Part shown: in pieces, positions 5,379 through 61,403 of the stretch | Layout: the number at the start of each line of letters is the position of its first letter | Numbering within the stretch: the stretch's first letter is position 1 | Assembly: GCA_000002435.2 (NCBI GenBank) | Contig: CM018791.1 | Strand: one strand, 5' to 3' | Source of the DNA: Giardia intestinalis | Lineage: Eukaryota | Length of the DNA: 64,000 nt | Position numbers and translations under genes: made by a program | The notes under the pieces: model-generated | The model's input: only the letters and a program-made list of their open reading frames with translations | The model's database searches: none | What the model was told of the DNA's origin: nothing

Positions 5379-6584
5379 ATGAAACCCAGTAAGTTCTGTG
5401 ATGAGATTGCTCGCGCCTTGCGTGATTTATCGAGCAACCGAGAAATCTTGTACATGGGCTGCTTAATGCAATGGCAGAACAAGGCATTTACCATCCTCTA
5501 TGAACAGCATTTCTCTGATGTCATAGAAGTAGTCCACAAGTTGACCATGAAGATTCTGAATATGTCTGTTTCAATGAAAGAGCAGTTTCGGTCTTTCTTG
5601 GCCCAGTATGAACTTAGTGTTAAGGGCCCTTCTGTTACTGATGAATCTATCGGGTCTGATGCTTCAGGCGCTGAACCGGCTTCCAGGAAGACTTTATCAA
5701 AAGTGGATACTGAAGCAGGGCTTCGCCCCGCGTTGCGAGTGTATAGTACTGTACGTTGGACGTACTTATACATATGTATTCTCAACTTTTATGAAAATCT
5801 AGAGCGGCTCATAGCGTTCATAAGTCGGTGCCCGAATACAACCTCTGTTCTTTCAAAGCATCTTGCTACACAGCTTATTAACCTTACCTGGATTCGGCGA
5901 TTGGCGTTCCTTGCAGATATCTTCCAGCTCTGTAGGGGCCTCCGACTCCTAATGGAAGGGCCACGTATTGTACCGGGGCACGCGCTGCTGGAGATGGGCG
6001 GGCTCCGGGACGCGCTGCAGACGGTGCTCGCCGAGCTCCGGGCCGGGGTCTGGACCCGCCTCCCCCGGCTGGGTGCGCGCCTTCGGGATGGGGCCGCACT
6101 CCCTGACGAGGAGAGGAGGTCCCTTGCGGGCGCCCTGGAGGCCTTTGTCGCCGAGCTCGATGCGTGCTTGTCGGCGTACCGGCAGTGCCTTCCGCTTCTC
6201 CGGCTGACGGTGTCCCCCGTGTGTGCCCCGGCAGCGGGAGGAGCGGCGCCTCCGGAGCCATTCCCGGTTCCAGGGGTGGACCGGGACGGGTTTACCGCGG
6301 AGTATCGGGGCTTCAGCGGCGGAGAACGCGGAGACGCGCACCGGCGTTGCCTGGAAAGAATTCGCGGCATGACGTGCAACGCGGCCCGCTGGAACGCACT
6401 AGTGACCTTCTGGGCGGACCAGAGGGCAGCGTATCCGCAGACCAGCCGGGCCGCGCTCGGGCTCCTGACGGTACTCGCGACCGTCTGTGCCTCCGAAGTA
6501 TCCTCCTCCGCGCTCAAGCGGGCCCTGAGCCGGGGAGCAGGCGCCGTGCTCCTTGCGCGCCTCGACGCGCGCGTGGGCGAGTAA
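5379..6584 (+). CDS. hypothetical protein (401 aa), mosaic: a normal-composition N-terminal half fused in frame to a GC-rich repeat-derived C-terminal half
   Basis: ATG verified at 5379. Codon third-position GC changes abruptly at nt 5975, which is exactly where the large inverted repeat begins. The C-terminal 202 codons (Ala/Arg/Leu/Gly/Pro-rich, GC3 about 90%) are also present in the second repeat copy with a different 12-aa N-terminus (ORF 21154..21798). Confidence 0.45.
   Translation: MKPSKFCDEIARALRDLSSNREILYMGCLMQWQNKAFTILYEQHFSDVIEVVHKLTMKILNMSVSMKEQFRSFLAQYELSVKGPSVTDESIGSDASGAEPASRKTLSKVDTEAGLRPALRVYSTVRWTYLYICILNFYENLERLIAFISRCPNTTSVLSKHLATQLINLTWIRRLAFLADIFQLCRGLRLLMEGPRIVPGHALLEMGGLRDALQTVLAELRAGVWTRLPRLGARLRDGAALPDEERRSLAGALEAFVAELDACLSAYRQCLPLLRLTVSPVCAPAAGGAAPPEPFPVPGVDRDGFTAEYRGFSGGERGDAHRRCLERIRGMTCNAARWNALVTFWADQRAAYPQTSRAALGLLTVLATVCASEVSSSALKRALSRGAGAVLLARLDARVGE
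5975..6584 (+). other. compositionally anomalous GC-rich block (about 73% GC) at the outer end of the inverted repeat; strong GC3 periodicity in the + frame
   Basis: Seen directly: the flanking sequence is about 45-50% GC. Many overlapping ORFs appear on both strands, as expected for GC-rich DNA. The mirrored copy is at 21154..21763. Confidence 0.6.
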
Positions 6585-6595
6585 AGCAGGGAAAG

Positions 6596-6668
6596 TACCG
6601 ACGACGGGGCTCGAACCCGCGACCACAGGATTAAGAGTCCTGCGCTCTACCGACTGAGCTACATCGGC
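6596..6668 (-). tRNA. tRNA-Lys (anticodon CUU), 73 nt, no encoded CCA
   Basis: I folded the reverse complement by eye: GCCGATG acceptor arm, TA, GCTC/GAGC D-arm, CAGGA-CTCTTAA-TCCTG anticodon arm (U33, CTT at 34-36, A37), a 5-nt variable loop, GCGGG-TTCGAGC-CCCGT T-arm, and CGTCGGT closing the acceptor stem with two G-U pairs plus discriminator A. It is very close to the metazoan tRNA-Lys-CTT sequence. Confidence 0.85.
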
Positions 6669-6732
6669 GCGACCGCACGCAGAATATCAGAATGACTTGT
6701 AATTTTGCTAGCAGTGTGTTGGTATTTGATCA

Positions 6733-9159
6733 ATGGCCGTTCTGCCGTCCGGCTACACGTACCTCCAGACCCTCGAGGACGGCGTCCTTCGCAAGCTCTA
6801 TACGGCCGCCCGGCACGATGGCGTCTCCTGCCTTTGTGAGGAGGTCTTTGTTGGACCTCCCCCTGCGCCTTCTGCCTCTTCGCTTCGCGCCTGTCCTGCC
6901 CTGATCGCTCGCCTCGATTCGCCCTTCCTTGGAAAATACATTCTTGTCCAGCCAGATAATCAGCGCAGGTCTGTCTTTCTTCTTTCCCAGCATGTCCAGG
7001 ATTTCTCTCTCTTCACTCTCTTTACGGCCCACACAGGCTCGCGACCATACACTCCAGAGGATGATATATGGCAAATTTTATATGGCGCACTTCAAGGACT
7101 GGCCTATCTTCATAGCCCTTTGGCAAAGCCTGTTCTTGTTCACGGTGCAATTTCACCCACCTCGGTCTATGTGTCTAGAGATGGAGCTGGGCTTTTGCGG
7201 TCACTGTGGAGCGTTCGAGAAAGTGGATCCCCCTTTACGGGCGACGCATACTCACCCCTCACCCCATACGTAGCCCCCGAGGTCCTGAAATCTCAGGCCA
7301 TAACTACCAAGGCAGACGTTTGGGCTCTTGGTTGTATAATTTATGAACTATGTGTGCAAAAGCAACTCTTTGCTGCGGCTAGCGAAGAAGAGATGGTCGC
7401 GCGTATCCTCACACCCGTGTCTGTCACCTTGCCGCCACAGTACTCGCGCGACTTAGTGACCGTTCTTCGCGCCATGCTTGAACAAGACCCGTTCCAACGG
7501 CCAGGAGCTGTTGTTCTTCTCGGACACCCTCGCTTCGAGCACTTCGATAATTCCCTCCCTGAGGATCACGAGGCTACCGCTGACTGCAAAGATCCTACCC
7601 TTTCTCGTGTCAACACAGTGCTAGCAGACAGCACAATGTCCTTTAGTTCCGTTGGCAGCTCTGTGGCCCCACTTCTTCCCGAATCTAATAGCCCCCTTTC
7701 CCAGGCAATTGCCGCCGGCAACAAGACTGCATTTACGAAGGCGCTAGGGGCATGGAAAGGGAAAGCAGACTCGAACGGCTACTCCAGCCTAATGTACGCC
7801 ATAGTCTATCAGAATACACCGATGGCTAAGCTTCTATTGAAATCGGATGCAGGGCTCCAGGACCGCACTGGCCGAAGCGCACTTATGTACGCATCTTCCT
7901 ATGACAAACTTGAACTCGTTCAAGAACTGATCCGGCGCGAGGGACGCCTTCGCGACAGGGCTGGGCGAACGGCGCTAATGCATGCAGCAGCGTCTGACTC
8001 CTTGCTGTCTATACGAGCCCTCATTCCCCTCGAAGCAGGGCTTGCCGATAATGAAGGCTCAACTGCCTTGATGATCGCCATTAAGAGCGGCGCATATCGT
8101 GCCGTGAGCATGCTTTATATTCAGGAAGCCAGATATCAATCTATGCTGGGAAAGACCGCCCTTATGCTTGCTGCACAACTTGATTGCGGCGTAGCCATCA
8201 ATCTGCTTGCAGAGGAGGAGACATACCTTGAGGACTCGTATGGGATGACTGCATCCCAATATGCCGAGCTGGCTGGTAACCAAGTTGGCGAGCTAGCACT
8301 TCGAGAACATGATCAAACCATAGTAACCGGGAAAACAGTTGCGGGGAGGCTGAGCTCTCTTCCTAAGCTGGGAATCAAAGGCGGGGCCCTGACCCTCGAG
8401 GAACGAGAACGCGTCAATATGCTGTCGGGATCACTTCCCAGAGATGAGCAAGGCAATACGTCGTTAATGCTGGCTATTCTGGAAGGCGATCGAATCTCTG
8501 CCGAAAGCTATCTTCCGAGCCAGATGGGCTTTAGAAATGCTGATTCAGAAACAGCCCTTATGCTTTGCGCAAAGAAGAATCTATCTGGTATCGCTGCTCT
8601 TCTCCTTGCTGCAGAGTCGGGACTGCGCGTTGGGCTTAGCTCTTCTGTGCCCAAGGAGCGAGTTGGCATGACTGCGCTCATGCATGCAGCAGAAGCAAAT
8701 GCAGTAGAGGTGTGCAAGGTCCTTTTGACAGCAGAGGCCGGGTCAGTGCGAAAGGACGGCAAGACGGCCCTTATTCTTGCCGCTATGGCTGACGCAAAAG
8801 ACGCTGCCCTTGTCTTGGGAGCTTGTGATAAAGAGGCAGGCCAGCATGACACAAACGGCTTCACAGCTCTGATGGGGGCTGTGCAGCATAGAAATGTAGA
8901 TCTTGCCAAGCTTCTATTGAAGAAAGAAGCCGGCTTTCAGAAAAACGACGGCACTGCTGCGATACACATTGCAGTGTTTCTCGAAGATGTCGCCTTGGTA
9001 AAGCTGCTCTTTTCTTATGAAAAGGACTTGCAGCTAGCAGACGGCAGAACTGCCCAGACGATTGCAATTGCTCTTAACAATCCTGCATTGCAGGCTGTCT
9101 TCGATGAACCCACAAAGAAGCGCTCCAAAAGCCGGGCACAAGGGAGCGCCAAGCGATAG
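6733..9159 (+). CDS. NEK-like protein kinase-fold protein (predicted pseudokinase) with C-terminal ankyrin-repeat array, 808 aa; copy A
   Basis: ATG verified at 6733. The N-terminal 265 aa have a kinase fold (APE-like TPYVAPEVL, subdomain IX ADVWALGCIIYEL), but no recognisable G-loop, HRD Asp or DFG (VHGAISPTSV / SLWS). The rest carries about 14 ankyrin repeats (TALMxAA..G). This architecture is typical of Giardia NEK/ankyrin proteins. Confidence 0.8.
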   Translation: MAVLPSGYTYLQTLEDGVLRKLYTAARHDGVSCLCEEVFVGPPPAPSASSLRACPALIARLDSPFLGKYILVQPDNQRRSVFLLSQHVQDFSLFTLFTAHTGSRPYTPEDDIWQILYGALQGLAYLHSPLAKPVLVHGAISPTSVYVSRDGAGLLRSLWSVRESGSPFTGDAYSPLTPYVAPEVLKSQAITTKADVWALGCIIYELCVQKQLFAAASEEEMVARILTPVSVTLPPQYSRDLVTVLRAMLEQDPFQRPGAVVLLGHPRFEHFDNSLPEDHEATADCKDPTLSRVNTVLADSTMSFSSVGSSVAPLLPESNSPLSQAIAAGNKTAFTKALGAWKGKADSNGYSSLMYAIVYQNTPMAKLLLKSDAGLQDRTGRSALMYASSYDKLELVQELIRREGRLRDRAGRTALMHAAASDSLLSIRALIPLEAGLADNEGSTALMIAIKSGAYRAVSMLYIQEARYQSMLGKTALMLAAQLDCGVAINLLAEEETYLEDSYGMTASQYAELAGNQVGELALREHDQTIVTGKTVAGRLSSLPKLGIKGGALTLEERERVNMLSGSLPRDEQGNTSLMLAILEGDRISAESYLPSQMGFRNADSETALMLCAKKNLSGIAALLLAAESGLRVGLSSSVPKERVGMTALMHAAEANAVEVCKVLLTAEAGSVRKDGKTALILAAMADAKDAALVLGACDKEAGQHDTNGFTALMGAVQHRNVDLAKLLLKKEAGFQKNDGTAAIHIAVFLEDVALVKLLFSYEKDLQLADGRTAQTIAIALNNPALQAVFDEPTKKRSKSRAQGSAKR

Positions 9160-11097
9160 CCGAATTGCAGCCTCACAGAATGTGACACACTGGCCTGTGG
9201 TTACTAGCTTTGGGAGGCCTGGCCTATGGGCTTCAATTGCCATACTTATCCACCAAGAATGAACACTGCGAAGGTGCCTACTCATTATTTGACAATTCAG
9301 GTTTTACACATGTTTCCTTGTGCATTATTGGGAGGAAGCATGAAAAATCCACATTCTTCGAAGGTAAAGCTCCTGTCCCCTACATCTATTTTCTAATAAA
9401 GCATTCAACTGCACAGACTAAGTGCTGCAGCTATCTCATGGTATTGAAAACCGTATATACAGGCTTTATCCTCAGACCTGCTAGAGTTGATTGGGGGGCC
9501 ATTAGCCTACTAATTTGACATGAACAGAAGGAGTAATGTGCCTATTCGGTCGACATTGAGGGTTAAACCACACCAATGACTGACTATGTGCCACACGGAT
9601 CACTCCCAGTAAGCATTTGTTACAAACTAGAGAGTCCTGCACGGTCAATTTACAGCACATCTTTCCATCATAACCTTCAAAGTAGGCGTCCATTCTGTTA
9701 TCACATAGCCTGTTGAGCCATGAGTGACACCTGCAACGTTTCTGCTTAACAGATTAAATGTTCTAAGCTTGTTCTTTGAATAATAAGTATAGCTGTCCCG
9801 TATTATTTACACAGAGGTGAAGACACGATACACTTATGCGCCAGGATCGCATTAAATTAGACCTTGATTGATAGCTATATATTCTACTGATTGCTCGCGC
9901 TCTTGGATTGCAGAATGAATAAAAGGTAGCTAGATTGCATGCATTACTATTGTAGAGTAAGTTATTTTAGGACGGATCCTGCAATCCTACTGGTGTCCAT
10001 CTCCCTAGATATCTGCATCTGGAGAGGACTGTTTCCTGGCTGCCTGTGACAAGCATAAAGGAAACGTGTCTTGAAGAAAAGCACATTCACAGGGTCGTAT
10101 ATTAATGCGGCTCAGCATGTCCATCAAGATTGGCATCGGATGGACTTCTGACAGCTGAGTACAGGAGTGCCTAGTTGCGCAAACTGTGGACCCGCAGTTC
10201 CTAAGCATACTAAGTAGCATCTCTTCAGTTCTGTGGCCTAAGTCAAGCGTTCTGCAGATAGACTCCTAAGTTAATGTGCTTCTGGCTATGATTTTCAGCT
10301 CTGGAGGTTCTGTCCCGTCCGCAGACTACTACTTCTAGATACAGTCTTTCTGCATCGGGAGTGAGGGGCTCTGTGGCCTCTTACTCTCCCTTCATACAAA
10401 TACAGACAGGTCCTTGCAGAAGAGACCCAGAGCTCTTGTAGCATTTACGCTGTGGCTACGCACCGTACCTCCCCACGCTTCTCTCGGATACTCACGGCGG
10501 CTGTATCCCTGGTTGTCCACGCTACGTTGCCCCACATGAGAAGTCCATTAGCGAAGCGCTTGTGGTCACCGAAGCTGCCTGCTCAATATCGGTTAGCGGC
10601 CTTCACCGGTATTTCACGTCCACATATGCAAGGGGCACCTGCGTCTCAGCGCCGTCCCTCAGGCACTGTAGCAGGCGAGGTCTGACTTCGCTGCATTGGC
10701 GGTTTCGTGATATGCATCCAGCTACCCGATGTTTGGCAATGGTCTGTGCCAATTCCTGAGCAACTGGTAACAAATCCTTACCTGTTTAGAGTCATACCTG
10801 TGAAGGGTGTCCCTTACATCACGGAAGACCCTAGCCGCCGGTCGACGCTCGGCGCCAGATGCCTCCTGCGGGCCACGAGGAGCGAATCTGCATGGGTCTT
10901 CCCACATGCTGCTAGCGCCGGGCCGCCCGCCCATTGCGCGCATGACCAACGCCTCGGCGCCAGACCCGCAACGCAGGAGGAGTGTGTGTTCATTCACTCT
11001 TTGCAAACGAGCAAGATATTCAGATCCAGCCCCAACAATTCTTAAGTAATGAGCTGCGACGTCTAAGCTACAGCCGTATTCAATGATTTACAGAAAA

Positions 11098-14000
11098 TTA
11101 GAGCTGAACCATGGATGGTTGTCTGGAACCATTTAGTAGAGGTGCAGTAGAGTACATAGACGCAGTAAGACTAGAATTGCGAGTGAGTTGCGGCTTAGGA
11201 AGCCCGCGACCAGGCTTCCGCGGGGCACGCTCCCTCAGTACACCGCTCTTCCTGGGCCGTATCACGAACCACCAGACGAGGAAGCCGGCCACCGCAGCGA
11301 GGACGAGGAGAACGACGACCACGATCGCAGCTGTTGTGCCGGCAGACGATTTGTTAGATGGAGCAGGGACTCCGCAGACGAAGTCGCTTGTGAGAGAGAA
11401 GCCTTCATCGCATATGCAAGTGGGCTTTACGCCGTTCTCAGACACGCACCTGCCGTTGCCCCCGCAGATCGTCACGGTGCCGTCGGTGCCGCGCTGGATG
11501 CACTGGCTGCTGATGCAGAGCCCCTCGGAGACGGTCTCGTAGCCGCTTCTGCAGCTGCACAAGCCCCCGTCGGAGAGCTGGCAGTCGCCGTTCCCCCCGC
11601 ACAGCGTTCCACTGGAAACGCAGGCCGATGGGTAGCAGAGGGTCCCGTGGAGGGTCCAGCCTTGTCTGCAGCTGCAGATCGCAGAGGACCCTTCACCAGT
11701 ACACTCTCCTCCGCCGTTGCAGACTTTCCCGTCCTTGAGACACCTTGTGGGGATGCAATCAGTCTTGACCAGAGTATAGTCTTTTGCACACAGGCAGCCG
11801 TAGGTGTCGCCGGTCTTCTCGCAGGCGCCGAAGCCGCTACAAAGCTTGTTGTCTGACGAGACGCAGCTGCTATGCACACAACCATTTTGACCAGGGAGGT
11901 TCTTAAAATTGGGGGCCTGGCAGTTGCATGTTCCTGTGTCACCGGTCTCCGTGCACGTCCCACCACCATCACAAACTTCTGAAAGAATGCTCTCGTGCGC
12001 CCCGAAGCACTCCTTGACGAAGCACTGGCCGGTCTTCTTGTCTGTACGGTACCTGCTGTTGTCGCACCTGCACATTCCTGTACCAGTGGTGGCTTCAACG
12101 CATGTTCCACGGTTATTACATATCTTAGTAATGTCATCAGCGTGATCTCTCGGCATGCATTCTCTATATACGCAGACACTTGATCCAATGAGAATTGTTC
12201 CAGAATTGCAACTACATTCCCCAGTGGCCTCGCCGTTGTCATTGCACGTACCCATACCATAGCACGTTTTTTCTGTCTGATCGTATGGATCCGTCCAGAC
12301 GCACCTGGACTTCCGGCACTTCTTGCTAGCACTGTCAACGACGAAGCTCGAGTTGACGCAGACGCAGTTGAAGCTACTGCCACCAAACTGACAAGTTCCT
12401 GCATCAGTATTTTCTTCCATACTACAGCTATCTTTTGGACAGTTGCTAAGATAACATCGCTTATCTGTGTGTTCCAGGTACCCATCATTGCAAGCCTTGC
12501 ATTGAGGACCTTCGTACCCAGGGTAGCACTTACATGTCTTTTCTTCTATAGAGCAAGTTCCCCTTCCGCTGCATATCATGGTTGTGTCTGTCTCCGAGAC
12601 AGCACATACCTCCGGGATACACACATAATTTCCTAATATGCCTTTGACTGTTTTGTAGCCAGACTCACAGCTGCAAGAATATTCTACGGTATGATCCCCC
12701 TTGCATGTTCCGTGACCAGAACACTCGACATTCCTGAAGGTGTTTCCAGGCAGGACGTCACTGAGACACACTCTCTTGATGCACTTTTTATTCTCCAGCT
12801 GGACAATGTCAGATCGCTCTATACACTTGCAGTAGGGTTCGGATGACTGAGTGGTATTCAGAATGCACATTCCAAACTGTCTTCCGCCGCATGTAGTATT
12901 CATTTTGGTGTTATCTAGTTTTGTAATCTCAAATATGCAAGCCTTTGGCAGACAGAACCCATCAAGTTCTTCGTACCCGTCAGGCCTCGGGTCCTTGCAC
13001 TTACAAGCGTAGTCTCGACGATCGCCGTGCGACGCTATCTTTGTGCACACACCAATCGTGTCACCGCCACATACGGATTCAGTGAGCCTTCCGTTACTGT
13101 CTGTAGCATTGATGAAGCAATTGAGACCAACACAGACCTTATCCACCAACTTGGTCCCTAGATTGCATATGCATCCATCAGGTCCACACCTACCCGCGCC
13201 TCCACAGATCACCGGTACGTCCTTGTCTTTACTAGAAATACACTTTTCTAGCACGCATGTCTTCCTCAGCTCGCCGCTTGCGTCTCTAAGTGTATACGCA
13301 TTCGCACCATTAGTACACGTGCATTGCTTGTCCTTCAATAAACCGTTGGCACTGCATGTTCCCAGCCCGTTACACTCTATGGCGGCGTCGTTCGCAGACG
13401 CCCTATACATGCACTTGCTCGGGACACACGTGTCTCTATTTCCATCTTGATTTCTTTTATCACTCAGTTCGTAGCCCTCGGAGCAGACGCAGCCGTAGCG
13501 GTTATCATCTCCCTTCACGCACGAAGCCAAAGAGTCACCTCCGCAATACTTATCCCCAGACATGCAGCTTTGGTGAACGCAAAGCCCATTAAAAGACTTG
13601 TATGAAAAAGCACACTTGCACGAGTACGTGTTTCCATTAGAATCTTGTGTGCAACTCCCAACGGTGCCGTCGTAGACCTTGCATTCGACGTACTTAAGTT
13701 CTCCATTGTGGATCACCTTTCCGGCGCACCCGGGGTGAGTGCAGTAACCACCAAAGGCCTCAAAACCATCCTTACACTCACATCCATATCGGCCGGTCAG
13801 CTGGTTGTACGCGCAGACTCCCTTCCCAGAGCAGACGTGGCGATCTAACGTTAGCTTCCTTGCATCGGCTGCCGTCACGCCCACAGGCAGGCAGTCGTAG
13901 CTGTAGCACATGTCACCGATCCTCAGGAAGCCCGGGTTGCAGGTGCAGGACTCATTTTCGTTTATGTAGCCAGCTCCGGGGCCGCCGCATAGACCTCTTG

Positions 14001-16179
14001 CTAGCTTAGTCTGTGGATTCGCATTCTTGCTTTTTAAAATGCACGTCTTGTTGTATGTAACATAGTCCCCAGTGCAATTACACTGCCACGTCGTGTCCCG
14101 GCCGACGGTGCAGTGGAGTTCGTGACTGCCCAGCGCAGCGCAGTACTTAGGTGCTCCTGGGCCGGCGAGCTTTTTATCAAGCTTGCACGCATTGGTGACG
14201 CACGCCTTTAAACTTTGGTCCCACGTAGCATCTGGACCGCAATCGCATTCATATCCTTCGTTACCATCCTTCTTTTTGACACAGTCTCCCACACCACCAC
14301 AGTAATTGTACCACATATGATAAATAGATCTACCGTCGTGACAGTCGGTATGCATGCAGGTTGCATTGTTTTCCCCAAAGTGTACAAGATGAAAGCCAGT
14401 TGGGCACACAGTGCACGTTTCAGGTAGATTGGAGCCTTCAGAAGGCTTAGCACAGGTTGGCATTCGATCGTCCTGAAGACTATCTGTCAGCCCCTCTAGG
14501 AACCCACAAAAGAACCTTCTTGTCTTATCTATCTTACTGATAAATACACATCCAGGTTTAGCAGAGAAGGTGCCGTTGTAGGCTGAAACGTTCCCATCAC
14601 TGGAGCCTTTAGGGACGCATGTGATGAACGGATTGCTAGGATCTCCATAAGTGGTGTACGTGCCTGTGTTCCCGCAGATATCCTGAGCAGTAGCCGTGCG
14701 CAGACTGGGCTGTGGATCCGGTGGTTGTTGTTGCACAATGCACTTCTTTGCAATGCATTTCTTGTCAATCACTTGCGCATTTTGTTGATTACATTCTGCG
14801 CACTTAGCTCCTGTGTAGATAGGCGAACACTGGCACGTCATCGTATAAGGAGCCTCAGCACTAACGACAATGCGTCCATGATCACTGCAAACCGTGGCAG
14901 GGATATCCACCAGACTGCTCAAGATGCAGCGCCCTGGAGCGATGTAGGTATAGTCCTGATCACAAGTGCATTGTATATTTCGTAGATCGTCCGTCTTGCA
15001 CGTGCCGTGCCCCGAGCAGACCTTCCCAAGTTCCTCGTCCATGCACGCGGGGGACGTGCACTCTCCGTCAACGGCAATGAGCATGTCCGGGCAGCGGCAG
15101 TGGTACTCGCCATCGAACTTGACACATGTTCCTCCGTTCTTGCATGATTCTCGCTTGTCTGAGGTGAGGCATCCCACTGGAACGCACTTGCCATTTATCT
15201 TAGCAGACTTGTCAGTGCAAGTATCGCAGAGGTCGCCCGTGGCAAGTCCCCGGCAATCGCACTTATAGCCAGCGCCGTCACGCACACAGGCGCCCACTCC
15301 GCCACAGATCTTCGAGTTGGAGCTATCGGTGCAGGTCGGATGCGTGCAGAACTCACCAACCTGGACTGCATTAGAATCGCAAACACACCTGAAGGTGCCG
15401 GTATTTCCCTCATCTGTGCAGTTCCCAAAGCCCCCGCAGACGACCGGGGACCCGTCGATCGTGGCCACGCACTCTGTCCTGACGCACTTGTGTCCAACGC
15501 GTGTATATCCCGTCTCACAGGCACAACGGTAGTGGTATGATTCGCGATTGAGGCCTACGTCGAGGACACAGTTACCATGTCCTGAGCACACAGTGCCGTC
15601 AGGATCCTGGCAAGCCCGTGGGTTACAAGTGGGGAGATTGTCCTGTGAGGGAGTCTTAGCATCAATTGCGTTGGCGTCGTCGCACGACTGGCAGAGACTC
15701 CCGCGGTAGATCGGGTAGCAGTCGCACGCGTAGTCGTCAGCACTCAGCCCGGCCAGCCCGGGGTCCTTCAGGAGGCAGCGGCCGCGGCCGTTGCAGGGAG
15801 GCTTCGTTGCCTCCTGTCCTGAGAGGTCACCGGTGTTGAAGCAGCTCTTCGGCAGGCACTCGCCCTCGTAGGACACGAAGCCATCGGGGCAGGGGTCGCA
15901 CGAGTACGCCCCCGCGTAGTAGGTGCACTTGTTCGACTCTGTGCACTCCGTCCCGTTCACGAGGCAAGCGTAGTTGACGGCCCTGTCTGCGGGTGTCTGC
16001 CCACTGGTAGTTACCCTGCGGAACCCTGCACGGGGAGCATCGCACGCAGCCCCCGCCCAGCCCCGCCTGCACTGGCAGAAGTATGCTCCGTCCCCGTAGG
16101 TGCAATTTCCGTGGACGCACTCGGGGCCTGTTCCGCATGCACTGGCGAGGAATGCAATAGCATACAGGAGAATCAGCAT
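11098..16179 (-). CDS. High-cysteine membrane protein (HCMP; VSP-like, EGF/CXXC-rich), 1693 aa
   Basis: ATG verified at 16179..16177. The N-terminus is a signal peptide (MLILLYAIAFLASA). Hundreds of Cys in CXXC/CXC spacing with GxCxxC-type repeats. A single C-terminal TM (IVVVVLLVLAAVAGFLVWWFVI) is followed by a roughly 45-aa cytoplasmic tail, which distinguishes it from VSPs ending in CRGKA. Confidence 0.85.
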   Translation of the reverse strand: MLILLYAIAFLASACGTGPECVHGNCTYGDGAYFCQCRRGWAGAACDAPRAGFRRVTTSGQTPADRAVNYACLVNGTECTESNKCTYYAGAYSCDPCPDGFVSYEGECLPKSCFNTGDLSGQEATKPPCNGRGRCLLKDPGLAGLSADDYACDCYPIYRGSLCQSCDDANAIDAKTPSQDNLPTCNPRACQDPDGTVCSGHGNCVLDVGLNRESYHYRCACETGYTRVGHKCVRTECVATIDGSPVVCGGFGNCTDEGNTGTFRCVCDSNAVQVGEFCTHPTCTDSSNSKICGGVGACVRDGAGYKCDCRGLATGDLCDTCTDKSAKINGKCVPVGCLTSDKRESCKNGGTCVKFDGEYHCRCPDMLIAVDGECTSPACMDEELGKVCSGHGTCKTDDLRNIQCTCDQDYTYIAPGRCILSSLVDIPATVCSDHGRIVVSAEAPYTMTCQCSPIYTGAKCAECNQQNAQVIDKKCIAKKCIVQQQPPDPQPSLRTATAQDICGNTGTYTTYGDPSNPFITCVPKGSSDGNVSAYNGTFSAKPGCVFISKIDKTRRFFCGFLEGLTDSLQDDRMPTCAKPSEGSNLPETCTVCPTGFHLVHFGENNATCMHTDCHDGRSIYHMWYNYCGGVGDCVKKKDGNEGYECDCGPDATWDQSLKACVTNACKLDKKLAGPGAPKYCAALGSHELHCTVGRDTTWQCNCTGDYVTYNKTCILKSKNANPQTKLARGLCGGPGAGYINENESCTCNPGFLRIGDMCYSYDCLPVGVTAADARKLTLDRHVCSGKGVCAYNQLTGRYGCECKDGFEAFGGYCTHPGCAGKVIHNGELKYVECKVYDGTVGSCTQDSNGNTYSCKCAFSYKSFNGLCVHQSCMSGDKYCGGDSLASCVKGDDNRYGCVCSEGYELSDKRNQDGNRDTCVPSKCMYRASANDAAIECNGLGTCSANGLLKDKQCTCTNGANAYTLRDASGELRKTCVLEKCISSKDKDVPVICGGAGRCGPDGCICNLGTKLVDKVCVGLNCFINATDSNGRLTESVCGGDTIGVCTKIASHGDRRDYACKCKDPRPDGYEELDGFCLPKACIFEITKLDNTKMNTTCGGRQFGMCILNTTQSSEPYCKCIERSDIVQLENKKCIKRVCLSDVLPGNTFRNVECSGHGTCKGDHTVEYSCSCESGYKTVKGILGNYVCIPEVCAVSETDTTMICSGRGTCSIEEKTCKCYPGYEGPQCKACNDGYLEHTDKRCYLSNCPKDSCSMEENTDAGTCQFGGSSFNCVCVNSSFVVDSASKKCRKSRCVWTDPYDQTEKTCYGMGTCNDNGEATGECSCNSGTILIGSSVCVYRECMPRDHADDITKICNNRGTCVEATTGTGMCRCDNSRYRTDKKTGQCFVKECFGAHESILSEVCDGGGTCTETGDTGTCNCQAPNFKNLPGQNGCVHSSCVSSDNKLCSGFGACEKTGDTYGCLCAKDYTLVKTDCIPTRCLKDGKVCNGGGECTGEGSSAICSCRQGWTLHGTLCYPSACVSSGTLCGGNGDCQLSDGGLCSCRSGYETVSEGLCISSQCIQRGTDGTVTICGGNGRCVSENGVKPTCICDEGFSLTSDFVCGVPAPSNKSSAGTTAAIVVVVLLVLAAVAGFLVWWFVIRPRKSGVLRERAPRKPGRGLPKPQLTRNSSLTASMYSTAPLLNGSRQPSMVQL

Positions 16180-18578
16180 ACAGTGATTTTAAAGATGGCT
16201 CCGGGTTATTATGTGCTAGCATACCATGAATATAAGAAGGAAACTTGTAAGTTTGTCATTTACAAACGAAAGTATACTGTTTCTGAGCTGTCCTCAGATG
16301 CTGCGTATAGCAGGATTAAATCGATACGTCACAAGGTTGTAGTTATTTACACGTCTTTTAAATATTGCTTCATTTCAACGAGGCGTTGCTTCAGTCTTCG
16401 TAGACATAGAGCACTATATGGTTGCACTCTTGATACTGAAGGCTAAAAGCGCTGAATTTCGAGGATTGCTCAGACTGATGAAGTAGATTGACACGAGTAC
16501 CAGGTCATTGTAACGTCGATAGCTATTGCCGTCATGCAAGGAGACGTTATGTCACGAAAAGGCCACGACTCAGATATTCTCGGTAGAGTAAAGAATTGCT
16601 CTTACAAATGAAGAATAAGAGGCGTGAAGGGACAGACAGTGGAGCAGAGTACAAAACGAAAAGGCAAGCTAATTGCTTTCTTTTAGTGGCGTATACATCC
16701 ATGAGACAGACCTCGCGGGCCCATTGCAGTCGATCTCCGTGATCAACGGGAGAGTCTGTGGCCCTTGTGCGGGTCTGGCGCCGAGGCGTTGGTCATGCGC
16801 GCAATGGGCGGGCGGCCCGGCGCTAGCAGCATGTGGGAAGACCCATGCAGATTCGCTCCTCGTGGCCCGCAGGAGGCATCTGGCGCCGAGCGTCGACCGG
16901 CGGCTAGGGTCTTCCGTGATGTAAGGGACACCCTTCACAGGTATGACTCTAAACAGGTAAGGATTTGTTACCAGTTGCTCAGGAATTGGCACAGACCATT
17001 GCCAAACATCGGGTAGCTGGATGCATATCACGAAACCGCCAATGCAGCGAAGTCAGACCTCGCCTGCTACAGTGCCTGAGGGACGGCGCTGAGACGCAGG
17101 TGCCCCTTGCATATGTGGACGTGAAATACCGGTGAAGGCCGCTAACCGATATTGAGCAGGCAGCTTCGGTGACCACAAGCGCTTCGCTAATGGACTTCTC
17201 ATGTGGGGCAACGTAGCGTGGACAACCAGGGATACAGCCGCCGTGAGTATCCGAGAGAAGCGTGGGGAGGTACGGTGCGTAGCCACAGCGTAAATGCTAC
17301 AAGAGCTCTGGGTCTCTTCTGCAAGGACCTGTCTGTATTTGTATGAAGGGAGAGTAAGAGGCCACAGAGCCCCTCACTCCCGATGCAGAAAGACTGTATC
17401 TAGAAGTAGTAGTCTGCGGACGGGACAGAACCTCCAGAGCTGAAAATCATAGCCAGAAGCACATTAACTTAGGAGTCTATCTGCAGAACGCTTGACTTAG
17501 GCCACAGAACTGAAGAGATGCTACTTAGTATGCTTAGGAACTGCGGGTCCACAGTTTGCGCAACTAGGCACTCCTGTACTCAGCTGTCAGAAGTCCATCC
17601 GATGCCAATCTTGATGGACATGCTGAGCCGCATTAATATACGACCCTGTGAATGTGCTTTTCTTCAAGACACGTTTCCTTTATGCTTGTCACAGGCAGCC
17701 AGGAAACAGTCCTCTCCAGATGCAGATATCTAGGGAGATGGACACCAGTAGGATTGCAGGATCCGTCCTAAAATAACTTACTCTACAATAGTAATGCATG
17801 CAATCTAGCTACCTTTTATTCATTCTGCAATCCAAGAGCGCGAGCAATCAGTAGAATATATAGCTATCAATCAAGGTCTAATTTAATGCGATCCTGGCGC
17901 ATAAGTGTATCGTGTCTTCACCTCTGTGTAAATAATACGGGACAGCTATACTTATTATTCAAAGAACAAGCTTAGAACATTTAATCTGTTAAGCAGAAAC
18001 GTTGCAGGTGTCACTCATGGCTCAACAGGCTATGTGATAACAGAATGGACGCCTACTTTGAAGGTTATGATGGAAAGATGTGCTGTAAATTGACCGTGCA
18101 GGACTCTCTAGTTTGTAACAAATGCTTACTGGGAGTGATCCGTGTGGCACATAGTCAGTCATTGGTGTGGTTTAACCCTCAATGTCGACCGAATAGGCAC
18201 ATTACTCCTTCTGTTCATGTCAAATTAGTAGGCTAATGGCCCCCCAATCAACTCTAGCAGGTCTGAGGATAAAGCCTGTATATACGGTTTTCAATACCAT
18301 GAGATAGCTGCAGCACTTAGTCTGTGCAGTTGAATGCTTTATTAGAAAATAGATGTAGGGGACAGGAGCTTTACCTTCGAAGAATGTGGATTTTTCATGC
18401 TTCCTCCCAATAATGCACAAGGAAACATGTGTAAAACCTGAATTGTCAAATAATGAGTAGGCACCTTCGCAGTGTTCATTCTTGGTGGATAAGTATGGCA
18501 ATTGAAGCCCATAGGCCAGGCCTCCCAAAGCTAGTAACCACAGGCCAGTGTGTCACATTCTGTGAGGCTGCAATTCGG

Positions 18579-21005
18579 CTATCGCTTGGCGCTCCCTTGT
18601 GCCCGGCTTTTGGAGCGCTTCTTTGTGGGTTCATCGAAGACAGCCTGCAATGCAGGATTGTTAAGAGCAATTGCAATCGTCTGGGCAGTTCTGCCGTCTG
18701 CTAGCTGCAAGTCCTTTTCATAAGAAAAGAGCAGCTTTACCAAGGCGACATCTTCGAGAAACACTGCAATGTGTATCGCAGCAGTGCCGTCGTTTTTCTG
18801 AAAGCCGGCTTCTTTCTTCAATAGAAGCTTGGCAAGATCTACATTTCTATGCTGCACAGCCCCCATCAGAGCTGTGAAGCCGTTTGTGTCATGCTGGCCT
18901 GCCTCTTTATCACAAGCTCCCAAGACAAGGGCAGCGTCTTTTGCGTCAGCCATAGCGGCAAGAATAAGGGCCGTCTTGCCGTCCTTTCGCACTGACCCGG
19001 CCTCTGCTGTCAAAAGGACCTTGCACACCTCTACTGCATTTGCTTCTGCTGCATGCATGAGCGCAGTCATGCCAACTCGCTCCTTGGGCACAGAAGAGCT
19101 AAGCCCAACGCGCAGTCCCGACTCTGCAGCAAGGAGAAGAGCAGCGATACCAGATAGATTCTTCTTTGCGCAAAGCATAAGGGCTGTTTCTGAATCAGCA
19201 TTTCTAAAGCCCATCTGGCTCGGAAGATAGCTTTCGGCAGAGATTCGATCGCCTTCCAGAATAGCCAGCATTAACGACGTATTGCCTTGCTCATCTCTGG
19301 GAAGTGATCCCGACAGCATATTGACGCGTTCTCGTTCCTCGAGGGTCAGGGCCCCGCCTTTGATTCCCAGCTTAGGAAGAGAGCTCAGCCTCCCCGCAAC
19401 TGTTTTCCCGGTTACTATGGTTTGATCATGTTCTCGAAGTGCTAGCTCGCCAACTTGGTTACCAGCCAGCTCGGCATATTGGGATGCAGTCATCCCATAC
19501 GAGTCCTCAAGGTATGTCTCCTCCTCTGCAAGCAGATTGATGGCTACGCCGCAATCAAGTTGTGCAGCAAGCATAAGGGCGGTCTTTCCCAGCATAGATT
19601 GATATCTGGCTTCCTGAATATAAAGCATGCTCACGGCACGATATGCGCCGCTCTTAATGGCGATCATCAAGGCAGTTGAGCCTTCATTATCGGCAAGCCC
19701 TGCTTCGAGGGGAATGAGGGCTCGTATAGACAGCAAGGAGTCAGACGCTGCTGCATGCATTAGCGCCGTTCGCCCAGCCCTGTCGCGAAGGCGTCCCTCG
19801 CGCCGGATCAGTTCTTGAACGAGTTCAAGTTTGTCATAGGAAGATGCGTACATAAGTGCGCTTCGGCCAGTGCGGTCCTGGAGCCCTGCATCCGATTTCA
19901 ATAGAAGCTTAGCCATCGGTGTATTCTGATAGACTATGGCGTACATTAGGCTGGAGTAGCCGTTCGAGTCTGCTTTCCCTTTCCATGCCCCTAGCGCCTT
20001 CGTAAATGCAGTCTTGTTGCCGGCGGCAATTGCCTGGGAAAGGGGGCTATTAGATTCGGGAAGAAGTGGGGCCACAGAGCTGCCAACGGAACTAAAGGAC
20101 ATTGTGCTGTCTGCTAGCACTGTGTTGACACGAGAAAGGGTAGGATCTTTGCAGTCAGCGGTAGCCTCGTGATCCTCAGGGAGGGAATTATCGAAGTGCT
20201 CGAAGCGAGGGTGTCCGAGAAGAACAACAGCTCCTGGCCGTTGGAACGGGTCTTGTTCAAGCATGGCGCGAAGAACGGTCACTAAGTCGCGCGAGTACTG
20301 TGGCGGCAAGGTGACAGACACGGGTGTGAGGATACGCGCGACCATCTCTTCTTCGCTAGCCGCAGCAAAGAGTTGCTTTTGCACACATAGTTCATAAATT
20401 ATACAACCAAGAGCCCAAACGTCTGCCTTGGTAGTTATGGCCTGAGATTTCAGGACCTCGGGGGCTACGTATGGGGTGAGGGGTGAGTATGCGTCGCCCG
20501 TAAAGGGGGATCCACTTTCTCGAACGCTCCACAGTGACCGCAAAAGCCCAGCTCCATCTCTAGACACATAGACCGAGGTGGGTGAAATTGCACCGTGAAC
20601 AAGAACAGGCTTTGCCAAAGGGCTATGAAGATAGGCCAGTCCTTGAAGTGCGCCATATAAAATTTGCCATATATCATCCTCTGGAGTGTATGGTCGCGAG
20701 CCTGTGTGGGCCGTAAAGAGAGTGAAGAGAGAGAAATCCTGGACATGCTGGGAAAGAAGAAAGACAGACCTGCGCTGATTATCTGGCTGGACAAGAATGT
20801 ATTTTCCAAGGAAGGGCGAATCGAGGCGAGCGATCAGGGCAGGACAGGCGCGAAGCGAAGAGGCAGAAGGCGCAGGGGGAGGTCCAACAAAGACCTCCTC
20901 ACAAAGGCAGGAGACGCCATCGTGCCGGGCGGCCGTATAGAGCTTGCGAAGGACGCCGTCCTCGAGGGTCTGGAGGTACGTGTAGCCGGACGGCAGAACG
21001 GCCAT
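18579..21005 (-). CDS. NEK-like pseudokinase with ankyrin repeats, 808 aa; copy B, identical to 6733..9159
   Basis: Translation identical to copy A in the ORF track. Confidence 0.8.
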   Translation of the reverse strand: MAVLPSGYTYLQTLEDGVLRKLYTAARHDGVSCLCEEVFVGPPPAPSASSLRACPALIARLDSPFLGKYILVQPDNQRRSVFLLSQHVQDFSLFTLFTAHTGSRPYTPEDDIWQILYGALQGLAYLHSPLAKPVLVHGAISPTSVYVSRDGAGLLRSLWSVRESGSPFTGDAYSPLTPYVAPEVLKSQAITTKADVWALGCIIYELCVQKQLFAAASEEEMVARILTPVSVTLPPQYSRDLVTVLRAMLEQDPFQRPGAVVLLGHPRFEHFDNSLPEDHEATADCKDPTLSRVNTVLADSTMSFSSVGSSVAPLLPESNSPLSQAIAAGNKTAFTKALGAWKGKADSNGYSSLMYAIVYQNTPMAKLLLKSDAGLQDRTGRSALMYASSYDKLELVQELIRREGRLRDRAGRTALMHAAASDSLLSIRALIPLEAGLADNEGSTALMIAIKSGAYRAVSMLYIQEARYQSMLGKTALMLAAQLDCGVAINLLAEEETYLEDSYGMTASQYAELAGNQVGELALREHDQTIVTGKTVAGRLSSLPKLGIKGGALTLEERERVNMLSGSLPRDEQGNTSLMLAILEGDRISAESYLPSQMGFRNADSETALMLCAKKNLSGIAALLLAAESGLRVGLSSSVPKERVGMTALMHAAEANAVEVCKVLLTAEAGSVRKDGKTALILAAMADAKDAALVLGACDKEAGQHDTNGFTALMGAVQHRNVDLAKLLLKKEAGFQKNDGTAAIHIAVFLEDVALVKLLFSYEKDLQLADGRTAQTIAIALNNPALQAVFDEPTKKRSKSRAQGSAKR

Positions 21006-21069
21006 TGATCAAATACCAACACACTGCTAGCAAAATTACAAGTCATTCTGATATTCTGCGTGCGGTCGC

Positions 21070-21142
21070 GCCGATGTAGCTCAGTCGGTAGAGCGCAGGA
21101 CTCTTAATCCTGTGGTCGCGGGTTCGAGCCCCGTCGTCGGTA
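21070..21142 (+). tRNA. tRNA-Lys (anticodon CUU), second copy inside the right repeat arm
   Basis: Sequence GCCGATGTAGCTCAGTCGGTAGAGCGCAGGACTCTTAATCCTGTGGTCGCGGGTTCGAGCCCCGTCGTCGGTA. Cloverleaf as described for the left copy. Confidence 0.85.
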
Positions 21143-21153
21143 CTTTCCCTGCT

Positions 21154-21798
21154 TTACTCGCCCACGCGCGCGTCGAGGCGCGCAAGGAGCACGGCGCCTG
21201 CTCCCCGGCTCAGGGCCCGCTTGAGCGCGGAGGAGGATACTTCGGAGGCACAGACGGTCGCGAGTACCGTCAGGAGCCCGAGCGCGGCCCGGCTGGTCTG
21301 CGGATACGCTGCCCTCTGGTCCGCCCAGAAGGTCACTAGTGCGTTCCAGCGGGCCGCGTTGCACGTCATGCCGCGAATTCTTTCCAGGCAACGCCGGTGC
21401 GCGTCTCCGCGTTCTCCGCCGCTGAAGCCCCGATACTCCGCGGTAAACCCGTCCCGGTCCACCCCTGGAACCGGGAATGGCTCCGGAGGCGCCGCTCCTC
21501 CCGCTGCCGGGGCACACACGGGGGACACCGTCAGCCGGAGAAGCGGAAGGCACTGCCGGTACGCCGACAAGCACGCATCGAGCTCGGCGACAAAGGCCTC
21601 CAGGGCGCCCGCAAGGGACCTCCTCTCCTCGTCAGGGAGTGCGGCCCCATCCCGAAGGCGCGCACCCAGCCGGGGGAGGCGGGTCCAGACCCCGGCCCGG
21701 AGCTCGGCGAGCACCGTCTGCAGCGCGTCCCGGAGCCCGCCCATCTCCAGCAGCGCGTGCCCCCTGTGTGCAATGGGCAACATCGTAAGGTGCAACAT
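21154..21798 (-). CDS. GC-rich ORF (214 aa): second copy of the repeat-borne GC-rich coding block with its own ATG; protein of unknown function, or a pseudogene fragment
   Basis: ATG verified (cat at 21796..21798), 12 codons outside the repeat boundary. It lies 13 bp downstream of the stop of the ankyrin gene 21811..22527. Residues 13-214 are identical to residues 200-401 of ORF 5379..6584. Confidence 0.4.
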   Translation of the reverse strand: MLHLTMLPIAHRGHALLEMGGLRDALQTVLAELRAGVWTRLPRLGARLRDGAALPDEERRSLAGALEAFVAELDACLSAYRQCLPLLRLTVSPVCAPAAGGAAPPEPFPVPGVDRDGFTAEYRGFSGGERGDAHRRCLERIRGMTCNAARWNALVTFWADQRAAYPQTSRAALGLLTVLATVCASEVSSSALKRALSRGAGAVLLARLDARVGE

Positions 21799-21804
21799 AT
21801 CACC

Positions 21805-21811
21805 GTTTACT
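21805..21811 (-). terminator. Giardia-type polyadenylation signal AGTAAAC overlapping the TAA stop of the ankyrin gene
   Basis: Minus-strand sequence gcaTAAGTAAACggtg. It matches the AGTRAAY consensus described for Giardia. Confidence 0.5.
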
Positions 21812-53762: not shown

Positions 53763-54024
53763 TTTTTCGGGCAGGATTTATTATTGACCAGAGGCTTTGT
53801 GGCACTCCTCTAGAGAAGATCTCAGTGTCAGCTTTAGGCCACTCCCATGGACATCGTCTGTTCCTGATCTCAGGGGCCCGTCAGGCTTCTCACGCTACCT
53901 CGCGGCTCCTCCGGGCGCGCGGCCCTGCTACTTCAAAGAGACTCGACTCCCAAGCCCCGCCTGGCCACCGAGCGGCCTGCAGGGTCCTTGCGCCCCCTGG
54001 GCCCGTGATGTGGCACATGGATGC

Positions 54025-54031
54025 GTTTACT
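54025..54031 (-). terminator. polyadenylation signal AGTAAAC 11 nt downstream of the VSP copy A stop
   Basis: Mirror of 61397..61403. Matches the AGTRAAY consensus. Confidence 0.55.
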
Positions 54032-54041
54032 ACCTGAGTAT

Positions 54042-56063: not shown

Positions 56064-56647
56064 TGTATTGTGGATTGGATTGCAATAAGATTCTGTTGGT
56101 GGTTGGACTGCTCCTGATAAGAAGACTCCATGCTTGCTAGTTCTTAATCAGCTTGAGACTCTTAGTCATTCATCTCAGAGGACAAAACCGGCATGTTCAG
56201 TAATGAGTGCACTGGCTCTCAAGCCGTACCACGTGTGCCGCTGGGGCCTACCTACATGTATGGTCCAGAAGTCTCACGGGCAAGCCTCGCTCAGTCCCTG
56301 GCCAGTCCGGAGGAGAGGGCTGGCCGCGGGTCGTAACGATAACCACAGCGGTGATAGGGAAGAGCTCCCTCCGTTTGTGGATCTGGGGTCTGTGCGTTCC
56401 TCGGCTGTTCCGCGGGCGTACGTGTCGATCTTTTCGAGGTTTTCTTACGGGCTCACTGTTCTACTGAGGGTGCCTCTCCTTGGTCTCTCTTCATAGTAGG
56501 TGAAGCTCTGGTCGTTGTCTTTTTAGATGCCCCCATCTGTCACAACTACTGCCGTCAGGGCTCTCTCCACCGGCTGAGATTCCACTCGATTGTGTGTCCG
56601 GTCTTGCGCCCCTTCTCGATCGTTGTCGTCGGGTCCCGGGGATGGAC

Positions 56648-58980: not shown

Positions 58981-59364
58981 GGGTCCTCGCGGGCTCTCCT
59001 TCGCCTCAGGTCCAGCTGTGTGCACGCCCGCGGAACAGCCAAGACACAAGACCCCAGATCCACAAACGGAGGGAGCTCCTCCTATCACCACTGTGGCTAT
59101 CACTGCGACCTTCGCCTTCGAGCTGGCCAGGGACTGAGCGAGGCTTGCCCGTGAGACTTCTGGACCATACATGTAGGTAGGCCCCAGCGGCACACGTGGT
59201 ACGGCTTGAGAGCCAGTGCACTCATTACTGAACATGCCGGTTTTGTCCTCTGAGATGAATGACTAAGAGTCTCAAGCTGATTAAGAACTAGCAAGCATGG
59301 AGTCTTCTTATCAGGAGCAGTCCAACCACCAACAGAATCTTATTGCAATCCAATCCACAATACA

Positions 59365-61386: not shown

Positions 61387-61396
61387 ATACTCAGGT

Positions 61397-61403
61397 AGTA
61401 AAC
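61397..61403 (+). terminator. polyadenylation signal AGTAAAC 11 nt after the VSP copy B stop
   Basis: Sequence gcgTAGatactcaggtAGTAAACgc. Confidence 0.55.

Follow-up and report, generated by a model that had tools for sequence, protein, structure and literature searches.

Overall structure of the palindrome

We analyzed a 64-kb window of chromosome 3 (1,973,847 bp in the long-read reference) of Giardia intestinalis WB (ATCC 50803) and found that it contains a palindrome with two identical inverted arms of 5 kb, which flank a unique spacer with a single gene for an EGF-like high-cysteine membrane protein (HCMP). The palindrome is very probably an old inverted segmental duplication that has been kept identical by gene conversion from arm to arm, that is, by concerted evolution. 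Comparison with other Giardia isolates revealed that the arms were near-identical within genomes yet diverged between lineages, which argues for concerted evolution by gene conversion. The structure itself, its conservation across lineages and this pattern of within-genome versus between-lineage identity were directly observed. All coordinates are positions in the whole window; sizes are given in nucleotides (nt) or amino acids (aa), and ORF denotes an open reading frame. The features of the palindrome are as follows.

5379..6584, + strand: GL50803_0022133, hAT-like gene of 401 aa that straddles the left outer boundary (exact look-up; Pfam Dimer_Tnp_hAT, 24 bits)
5975..10970, + strand: left arm of the palindrome, 4996 nt (repeat search and direct string comparison)
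6595..6668, - strand: tRNA-Lys(CTT), left copy (ARAGORN; Rfam RF00005, 71.8 bits)
6733..9159, + strand: NEK pseudokinase with ankyrin repeats, left copy, 808 aa, KAE8302677.1 (Pfam Pkinase and Ank; exact look-up)
9160..10970, no strand, with its mirror at 16768-18578: ORF-poor arm segment of 1.8 kb (1811 nt), longest ORF at most 112 aa
10971..16767, no strand: unique spacer, 5797 nt, without complementarity past the arm ends
11098..16179, - strand: EGF-like HCMP gene, 1693 aa, KAE8302678.1 / XP_001704627.1 (Pfam EGF; exact look-up)
16768..21763, - strand: right arm of the palindrome, 4996 nt (repeat search and direct string comparison)
18579..21005, - strand: NEK pseudokinase, right copy, 808 aa, KAE8302679.1 (identical ORF; exact look-up)
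21070..21143, + strand: tRNA-Lys(CTT), right copy (ARAGORN; Rfam)
21154..21798, - strand: truncated mirror copy of the 3' part of GL50803_0022133, a 214-aa ORF (ORF list; same hAT-dimerisation match)

Both the repeat search and the direct string comparison of the reverse complements gave 0 mismatches between the arms in 4996 nt, which sets a 95% upper bound of 6e-4 on arm divergence. Chance cannot produce a perfect inverted repeat of 5 kb. All four arm edges were abrupt, as complementarity fell to the random level of ~25% directly outside the outer and inner boundaries. The palindrome is chromosome-internal and does not sit at a contig end. Among inverted repeats of at least 100 nt, the window contained only this palindrome and a second perfect one, here called I2 (53901-56319 / 59109-61527). 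The two NEK copies are arranged tail-to-tail; their ORFs are 9419 nt apart, and the arms are 5797 nt apart.

An earlier interpretation made from the letters of this DNA alone (the sequence-only reading) had described perfect 4996-nt arms around a 5797-nt spacer, and these dimensions were exact in both comparisons. It had also placed a NEK pseudokinase, a tRNA-Lys and a GC-rich block in the arms, as confirmed by Pfam, by ARAGORN and Rfam, and by GC content in bins, respectively. Its statement that the HCMP gene nearly fills the spacer agrees with the 87.7% of the spacer that the gene occupies, and the orientations in the ORF list bear out the convergent NEK copies that it proposed, with the left copy antisense to HCMP.

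The same palindrome in isolates P15 and DH

The sequence-only reading had proposed a comparison with other Giardia assemblages, and the inverted-duplicated block was found in both P15 and DH. In the 454 assembly of P15 (assemblage E), all four junctions of the palindrome recurred. Contig L018 of P15 contained, in order, the right flank, the ankyrin gene, an arm (tRNA, NEK and non-coding DNA), HCMP and the start of the inverted arm, and its two arm pieces (8427-9412 and 15195-16176) were perfect matches over 558 and 420 nt except for one small indel. The first 205 nt of the P15 left-flank contig (L023) were 100% identical, in inverted orientation, to the outermost part of the right arm. In DH (assemblage A2), a single contig of 6664 nt (L022) comprised an arm end, the spacer with HCMP and the inverted arm end, and thus both inner junctions; its two arm ends agreed at all but 1 of 419 nt, and this mismatch was 3 nt from the boundary. 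The spacers of P15 and DH measured 5782 and 5777 nt, respectively. The inner junctions of WB and DH coincided to the nucleotide, those of P15 lay within ~8 nt of them, and the outer junction was 34 nt further out in WB than in P15. Within-genome arm identity was 100% in WB, 99.6-100% in P15 and 99.8% in DH, the P15 and DH values covering the junction-proximal 200-990 nt only.

Between WB and P15, the arms were far from identical. The identity was 81.6% over the whole arm, 88.9% in NEK, 86.3% in the GC block and 69.6% in the ORF-free 1.8 kb, compared with 80.0% in the spacer and 87-88% in the flanks; the synonymous divergence (dS) was 0.38 for NEK and 0.43-0.54 for the flank genes. Between WB and DH, the identity was ~94% in the arm ends and 91% over the whole contig. 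Purifying selection is not the cause of the arm identity, because the ORF-free 1.8 kb is the part that diverges fastest between lineages. If the arms had been independent since before the split of assemblages A and E, ~550 differences would be expected in the 1811-nt non-coding part of the arm, whereas 0 were observed in WB. The sequence-only reading had offered a very recent duplication or ongoing gene conversion as the explanation for such perfect arms; the latter part stood, and recency did not, since P15 and DH share the palindrome and have diverged from WB. Under the rule d ≈ 2μ/c, which is used for Y palindromes, an equilibrium arm divergence below ~6e-4 implies that conversion per site is thousands of times above the mutation rate.

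Concerted change in a second palindrome

53901..61527, no strand: I2 palindrome, with 2419-nt perfect arms (53901-56319 / 59109-61527) and a 2789-nt spacer

The arms of I2 carry the head-to-head VSP pair GL50803_119706/119707, and its spacer holds a reverse-transcriptase (RT) relic at 57564-58205 (Pfam RVT_1). This pair on chromosome 3 has been described as 673 aa, 3301 bp apart and with ψRT between the genes (PMC7000408, Table 2). In DH (L024 7139-7897 / 11402-12160), we found the outer 759 nt of the two arms to be 100% mutually identical, and this was the only part that formed a perfect inverted repeat. Both copies of this segment shared 116 common mismatches from WB (82.6% identity), whereas beside the patch the identity between DH and WB was 98.7% in the unique flank and 97.2% in the rest of the full-length DH VSP copy. 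The outer arm boundary in DH was exactly at the WB position. As far as these sequences tell, this is a concerted change, in which one replaced patch is present in both arms. I2 in DH therefore behaves like the NEK palindrome, and we counted it in favor of gene conversion.

Junctions in independent assemblies

The junctions of the NEK palindrome recurred in Illumina, 454 and Sanger-era data, and the worry expressed in the sequence-only reading, that the palindrome might be an assembly artefact, was not upheld. The WB-type Illumina evidence consisted of k=31 short-read graph contigs (Logan); such graphs, like 454 contigs, carry no phase across a perfect 5-kb repeat. Left-flank contigs ended at 6004 and right-flank contigs at 21734, in at least 20 samples each. 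Both positions are k-1 = 30 nt inside the arm, which is how a graph behaves when one sequence has two different neighbors. The left outer junction was crossed by Logan contigs L001-L003 and L007 and by the P15 contig L023, the right outer junction by Logan contig L012 and the right inner junction by WB-type short-read contigs. In 39 of the 47 collection blocks, NEK was present on contigs of 2-5 kb, which is the size expected of a unitig made up of the arm alone. The 2007 Sanger assembly contained NEK (XP_001704624), HCMP (XP_001704627) and a 95-aa protein (XP_001704630, GL50803_135970) that is exactly the NEK C-terminus, the end that faces the spacer. The order of these accessions suggests that NEK, HCMP and a partial second NEK lay in that order on one contig in 2007.

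Exact look-up of the HCMP protein in the short-read-derived collection gave no match outside the reference, and the HCMP homology search returned no Logan-derived fragments, so the left inner junction is unconfirmed in WB-type Illumina data by that route. The small ORFs that cross the inner junctions had no exact look-up match, and the final 30 nt of the arm had 0 matches in a metagenome scan. Contigs L001-L003, in which the left flank runs through the arm into the right inner junction, had been considered as single-copy or flipped-spacer isolates. We dropped this interpretation because the k=31 graph is unphased, the look-up shows the longest contigs first and the 39 blocks mentioned above hold arm-sized contigs.

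Palindrome region in more distant lineages

The comparison of WB with P15 indicates that the duplication predates the A/E split. In both isolates the hAT-like gene was found in an intact form at the left flank, with the right copy truncated against the ankyrin gene. The assemblage B isolate GS_B (L025) has kept the right flank, the ankyrin gene, a degenerate GC-rich hAT-like fragment and NEK, together with a stretch of homology to WB that begins at the tRNA-Lys position. Since the truncated hAT-like fragment lies beside the ankyrin gene in assemblage B too, the duplication may also be older than the A/B split, with assemblage B having been rearranged later. In GS_B, the region after NEK (L025 14145-20513) consisted of ~4 tandem units of ~1.3 kb, each composed of a NEK 3' fragment (~500 nt) and a VSP 3'-end fragment (~140 nt) that resembles the 3' end of the I2 VSP genes. 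The 1.8-kb non-coding segment was not at the position downstream of NEK in GS_B.

The G. muris NEK orthologue (40% aa identity) had no tRNA nearby and no palindrome around it; it is single-copy and non-syntenic, and G. muris is therefore uninformative about the ancestral state. Two further contigs (L019 and L020, from SRR17450158 and ERR3333379) encode a NEK with 77% aa identity to that of WB and were 73-76% identical in nucleotide sequence to assemblages A, E and B. Their assignment to assemblage B proved wrong, because they were only 76% identical in nucleotide sequence to the GS_B orthologue; judged by these values, they come from a more divergent G. duodenalis lineage. A 5.4-kb contig of this lineage starts within 3 nt of the P15 outer arm boundary position relative to the tRNA, which hints that the block may be repeated in this lineage too, without the GC-rich edge.

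Proposed origin of the identical arms and alternative explanations

In the explanation that we favor, a ~5-kb block, which consisted of the 3' half of the hAT-like gene, tRNA-Lys(CTT), the NEK pseudokinase and 1.8 kb of non-coding DNA, would have been duplicated in opposite orientation around the single EGF-like HCMP gene. The two arms would then have been repaired or recombined against each other repeatedly, by non-reciprocal intrachromosomal gene conversion, so that a change in one arm would be either erased or copied into the other. The molecular mechanism, its rate and any benefit are inferred; homologous recombination between the arms, mostly without crossing-over, would correct one against the other. 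Crossing-over between the arms would invert the spacer, and many intra-isolate inversions have been predicted in WB from Oxford Nanopore (ONT) data (PMC7048089). A role as an invertible switch was rejected, because inversion of the spacer would leave the surroundings of HCMP unchanged within 5 kb; the spacer faces identical 5-kb arms on either side, which makes a switch unlikely. We also rejected a palindrome made by a transposase through hAT hairpin chemistry, since the hAT-like gene lies at the outer boundary and not at the center, and the spacer is large.

Several observations weigh against this explanation. The second arm of P15 and DH was assembled only for the junction-proximal 200-990 nt, so the arm middles of these isolates could be a collapsed consensus, and near-identity over the whole arm was seen in WB alone. 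A few arm differences could also have been masked when the WB assembly was polished with multi-mapping short reads. In the Illumina data, a minority of WB-type contigs passed the right inner junction without the expected break and ended at 16310 (one at 16166). These contigs are among L001-L006, L009 and L010, and one of them, the 5454-nt L004, recurred in ~10 samples; the left inner junction was crossed by none of the 10 WB-type contigs listed. The missing inner breaks may reflect coverage effects or a spacer that is heterogeneous among chromosome copies or among WB lines. Polarised substitution counts revealed no arm-specific AT-to-GC (W-to-S) excess since the A/E split. In GS_B, neither HCMP nor an inverted NEK was found within 6.4 kb after NEK, and the palindrome in its present form is thus not universal.

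We give almost no weight to the explanation that the palindrome in the long-read WB genome is an artefact of assembly or library preparation, through fold-back or chimeric reads or a mis-joined repeat. Long-read pipelines can make false palindromes, and the left inner junction is missing from some short-read contigs. An artefact would nevertheless have to account for a 5.8-kb unique spacer with a complete and conserved gene, for a location inside the chromosome, and for outer junctions that are both present in many independent Illumina data sets. It would further have to place both inner junctions on single contigs of the DH and P15 454 assemblies, and NEK, HCMP and a partial second NEK in the 2007 Sanger assembly in that accession order. 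An inverted duplication that arose very recently in the WB (AI) lineage, too young for the arms to have diverged, would fit the 0 differences between the WB arms and the way in which low-dS Giardia duplicates were interpreted earlier (PMC2829556). It is made very improbable by DH and P15, which share the palindrome and its junctions, differ from WB by 6% and ~18%, respectively, and have near-identical arms within each genome. The same small probability applies, in our judgement, to independent and recurrent duplications of the block in each lineage at a duplication hot spot. In favor of recurrence, the dynamic parts of Giardia genomes, where synteny breaks, are the NEK, ankyrin and Cys-rich regions (PMC7000408), and assemblage B is arranged differently after NEK. 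However, the four junctions agree to 0-34 nt among A1, A2 and E, the small offsets of the boundaries look like erosion of one ancestral junction, and the degenerate truncated hAT-like fragment beside the ankyrin gene is found in assemblage B too.

A different type of explanation is that selection keeps the palindrome as a regulator of HCMP, with convergent NEK transcription or a fold-back transcript producing double-stranded RNA (dsRNA) that would silence or tune HCMP through Dicer and Argonaute. The left NEK is on the strand opposite HCMP, and no AGTRAAY poly(A) signal follows the NEK stop codon on its strand within the arm, whereas HCMP has such a signal 22 nt before the arm boundary; the structure has also been kept across assemblages. 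Transcripts that fold into a 5-kb hairpin, small interfering RNAs (siRNAs) and cruciform formation are geometrically possible. We nevertheless consider regulation improbable. The AGTRAAY consensus is weak and rarer than chance in the window (16 matches versus 30 expected), HCMP is not at this position in assemblage B, and inversion of the spacer would be locally neutral between identical arms. Moreover, conversion alone can perpetuate a palindrome without any function. Gene conversion between the arms of an old duplication remains the explanation that we prefer.

Comparison with known inverted repeats

The sequence-only reading had regarded the configuration as undescribed for HCMPs. This was unsupported, as identical inverted Giardia pairs with a unique spacer are documented (PMC2996952, PMC7000408) and both NEK copies (KAE8302677.1 and KAE8302679.1) were already carried in the reference annotation. 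Adam et al. reported 14 identical inverted vsp pairs, including the vsp1267 pair, with abrupt divergence points (2010, PMC2996952). Xu et al. found 19 VSP pairs in the long-read WB genome, 6.9% of which is duplicated (2020, PMC7000408); two studies together give 19-20 pairs (PMC7000408; bioRxiv 10.1101/2022.03.07.483299). Seven identical inverted VSP pairs are known in G. muris (PMC7641422). Identical inverted pairs are also known for a few other Cys-rich Giardia genes, and a preprint counts 'some members' of the NEK and ankyrin families as identical duplicates (bioRxiv 10.1101/2022.03.07.483299).

The NEK palindrome and the inverted VSP pairs are similar in that both have identical inverted copies, a unique spacer of a few kb and identity that continues past the ORFs to an abrupt point of divergence, and such pairs are known to break contigs when short reads are assembled. 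The pair 119706/119707 in I2 is located 32 kb away in the window, with an outer boundary that is exactly conserved in DH. Some differences were present. In particular, what is duplicated in the NEK palindrome is the NEK pseudokinase, the tRNA and one half of the hAT-like gene, none of them Cys-rich, and the Cys-rich HCMP gene is single and intact in the spacer. The arms are 5.0 kb long, compared with 2.4 kb for the I2 VSP pair, and the spacer is 5.8 kb, compared with 2-4 kb between the published paired ORFs. A pseudogene or retrotransposon relic often lies between the ORFs of VSP pairs, which fits I2 and not the NEK palindrome. The NEK palindrome is thus a member of a known Giardia class, and the cross-lineage evidence is a modest new point: the literature that we searched describes inverted pairs within one genome and contained no statement that they persist between assemblages and evolve in concert.

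By analogy, the closest functional counterparts are the primate sex-chromosome palindromes that are maintained by gene conversion (PMC3723533, PMC8327919). These palindromes (human Y P1-P8 and those of the X; PMC3723533, PMC8327919, PMC8981503) likewise have inverted arms that are >99.9% identical, a unique spacer and arm GC above flank GC, and orthologous palindromes occur in diverged lineages, with arm-to-arm identity far above between-lineage identity. In contrast, the Giardia palindrome is far smaller (arms of 5 kb versus 9 kb to 1.45 Mb) and lies on an ordinary chromosome, in a protist that is tetraploid and binucleate; its arm genes are not a tissue-specific amplified family, and the polarised counts did not demonstrate GC-biased conversion. 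Plastid large inverted repeats are also identical copies around a single-copy region, which are homogenised by recombination that can flip the single-copy region. The Giardia palindrome differs from them in being nuclear, with another context of replication and repair.

Several percent of the Giardia genome consists of identical duplicates. They have been read as recent, with recent duplication explicitly preferred over conversion (PMC2829556), and earlier even as assembly artefacts. The NEK palindrome and the neighboring VSP pair suggest that at least some of them are old and conversion-kept. A broader proposal, which we regard as improbable and put forward only as a speculation, is that the identical inverted pairs of Giardia are in general long-lived palindromes homogenised by very frequent intrachromosomal conversion, that they may act as a repair device in a largely clonal parasite, as proposed for the Y chromosome, and that at this locus they may supply dsRNA against HCMP. 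If this were true, concerted evolution would have largely created the impression of a 'recent burst of duplication' that low dS values give. Under gene conversion, arm divergence is useless for dating such duplicates, and short-read variant calls and dN/dS scans across the arms are unreliable. The palindrome would also be direct evidence, at the sequence level, that mitotic or intrachromosomal conversion is efficient in a parasite with an AI lineage that has been reported as asexual (PMC12669663), and it offers a defined 5-kb substrate for the experimental measurement of conversion rates.

Genes and base composition of the arms

The Pkinase match of NEK (68 bits, Pfam) covered profile positions 70-262 only, in addition to the Ank repeats. 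With human NEK2 as the ruler, NEK was found to be without the Gly loop, the VAIK lysine, DFG and the aspartate of HRD (the motif reads HGA), and the catalytic motifs were likewise missing from the orthologues of P15, the L019 lineage and G. muris. Because these motifs are gone in all orthologues and dN/dS was 0.13 between WB and P15, NEK appears to be a conserved pseudokinase under purifying selection, and the label 'pseudokinase' given in the sequence-only reading holds. The tRNA-Lys(CTT) sequence was 100% conserved between WB and P15. The ORF-poor 1.8-kb segment matched no Rfam family and had no blastx match to the VSP, HCMP, NEK and RT proteins of the window, and blastn revealed no further copy of it in the window beyond the two arms.

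The last 203 codons of GL50803_0022133 form the GC-rich block of the arm and encode a hAT-type C-terminal dimerisation domain; this arm-encoded part was conserved at the protein level in P15 and the L019 lineage. Its 214-aa mirror ORF begins 35 nt outside the arm and abuts the stop codon of the ankyrin gene (21811-22527), so the right copy is without the N-terminal half. In P15 (L023:7-1539(-)), GL50803_0022133 was fused with an upstream ORF, which is a separate 197-aa ORF in WB (4702-5295(+)), into one ORF of >511 aa. GL50803_0022133 looks as if it was derived from a hAT transposase. The Dimer_Tnp_hAT match (Pfam, 24 bits) was found in both the WB protein and its orthologue in the L019 lineage, and Hermes transposase gave the sole matches among PDB sequences, which were weak (E ~0.4). 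Among 1.8 billion representatives, the sole distant homologue was P0139, a protein of 619 aa with DUF4371 (3e-7) and a weak Dimer_Tnp_hAT match. Giardia is not known to have DNA transposons of the hAT class.

The outer ~600 nt of the arm were GC-rich, with a GC content of 0.67-0.82 per 60-nt bin. The GC content stepped from 0.47-0.53 to 0.77-0.82 exactly at the outer boundary (5975, 21763), in the middle of GL50803_0022133, of which the GC content at third codon positions (GC3) was 0.48 outside the arm and 0.81 inside. This step was also present in P15 (L023/L018) and in the degenerate GS_B copy (L025 ~10900), and the orthologue of the divergent L019 lineage had 53% GC. The outer arm edges of I2 were GC-spiked as well (0.645 and 0.68 versus 0.36-0.41 in the flanks). 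GC-biased gene conversion as the cause of the GC-rich edge was unsupported by the polarised counts since the A/E split. Over the whole arm, the GC content was 0.539, compared with 0.47-0.48 in the flanks. Giardia gene-conversion tracts have been reported to be GC-enriched, with a median of 0.541 versus 0.488 (PMC12669663), and we counted the match of the arm to this value in favor of gene conversion.

The HCMP gene of the spacer

The spacer gene, annotated in its source (KAE8302678.1 / XP_001704627.1) as 'High cysteine membrane protein EGF-like', has the features expected of an EGF-like HCMP, as judged from its sequence. It contains 11.0% Cys, 28 CXC and 6 CXXC motifs and EGF-like Pfam matches, as well as a hydrophobic signal-like N-terminus and one C-terminal transmembrane segment, AAIVVVVLLVLAAVAGFLVWWFVI, both judged by eye, followed by a tail of ~50 aa without a CRGKA ending. 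Orthologues were found in P15 (83% aa identity) and in DH (contig 91% identical in nucleotide sequence), and dN/dS was 0.12-0.21. Neither Pfam nor blast revealed a retrotransposon relic or pseudogene in the spacer; HCMP is intact and has no RT similarity. An AGTRAAY poly(A)-type motif at 10992-10998(-), 22 nt inside the spacer, is the only one downstream of the HCMP stop codon. Given its distance from the left arm boundary, the 3' end of HCMP nearly coincides with the boundary of the palindrome. The HCMP region was 91% identical between WB (A1) and DH (A2, L022) overall, far below the ~98% of the left flank, and the divergence was mosaic, with 200-nt bins that ranged from 70% to 99.5% identity. 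This pattern suggests that HCMP may have been replaced patchwise through segmental conversion from paralogues.

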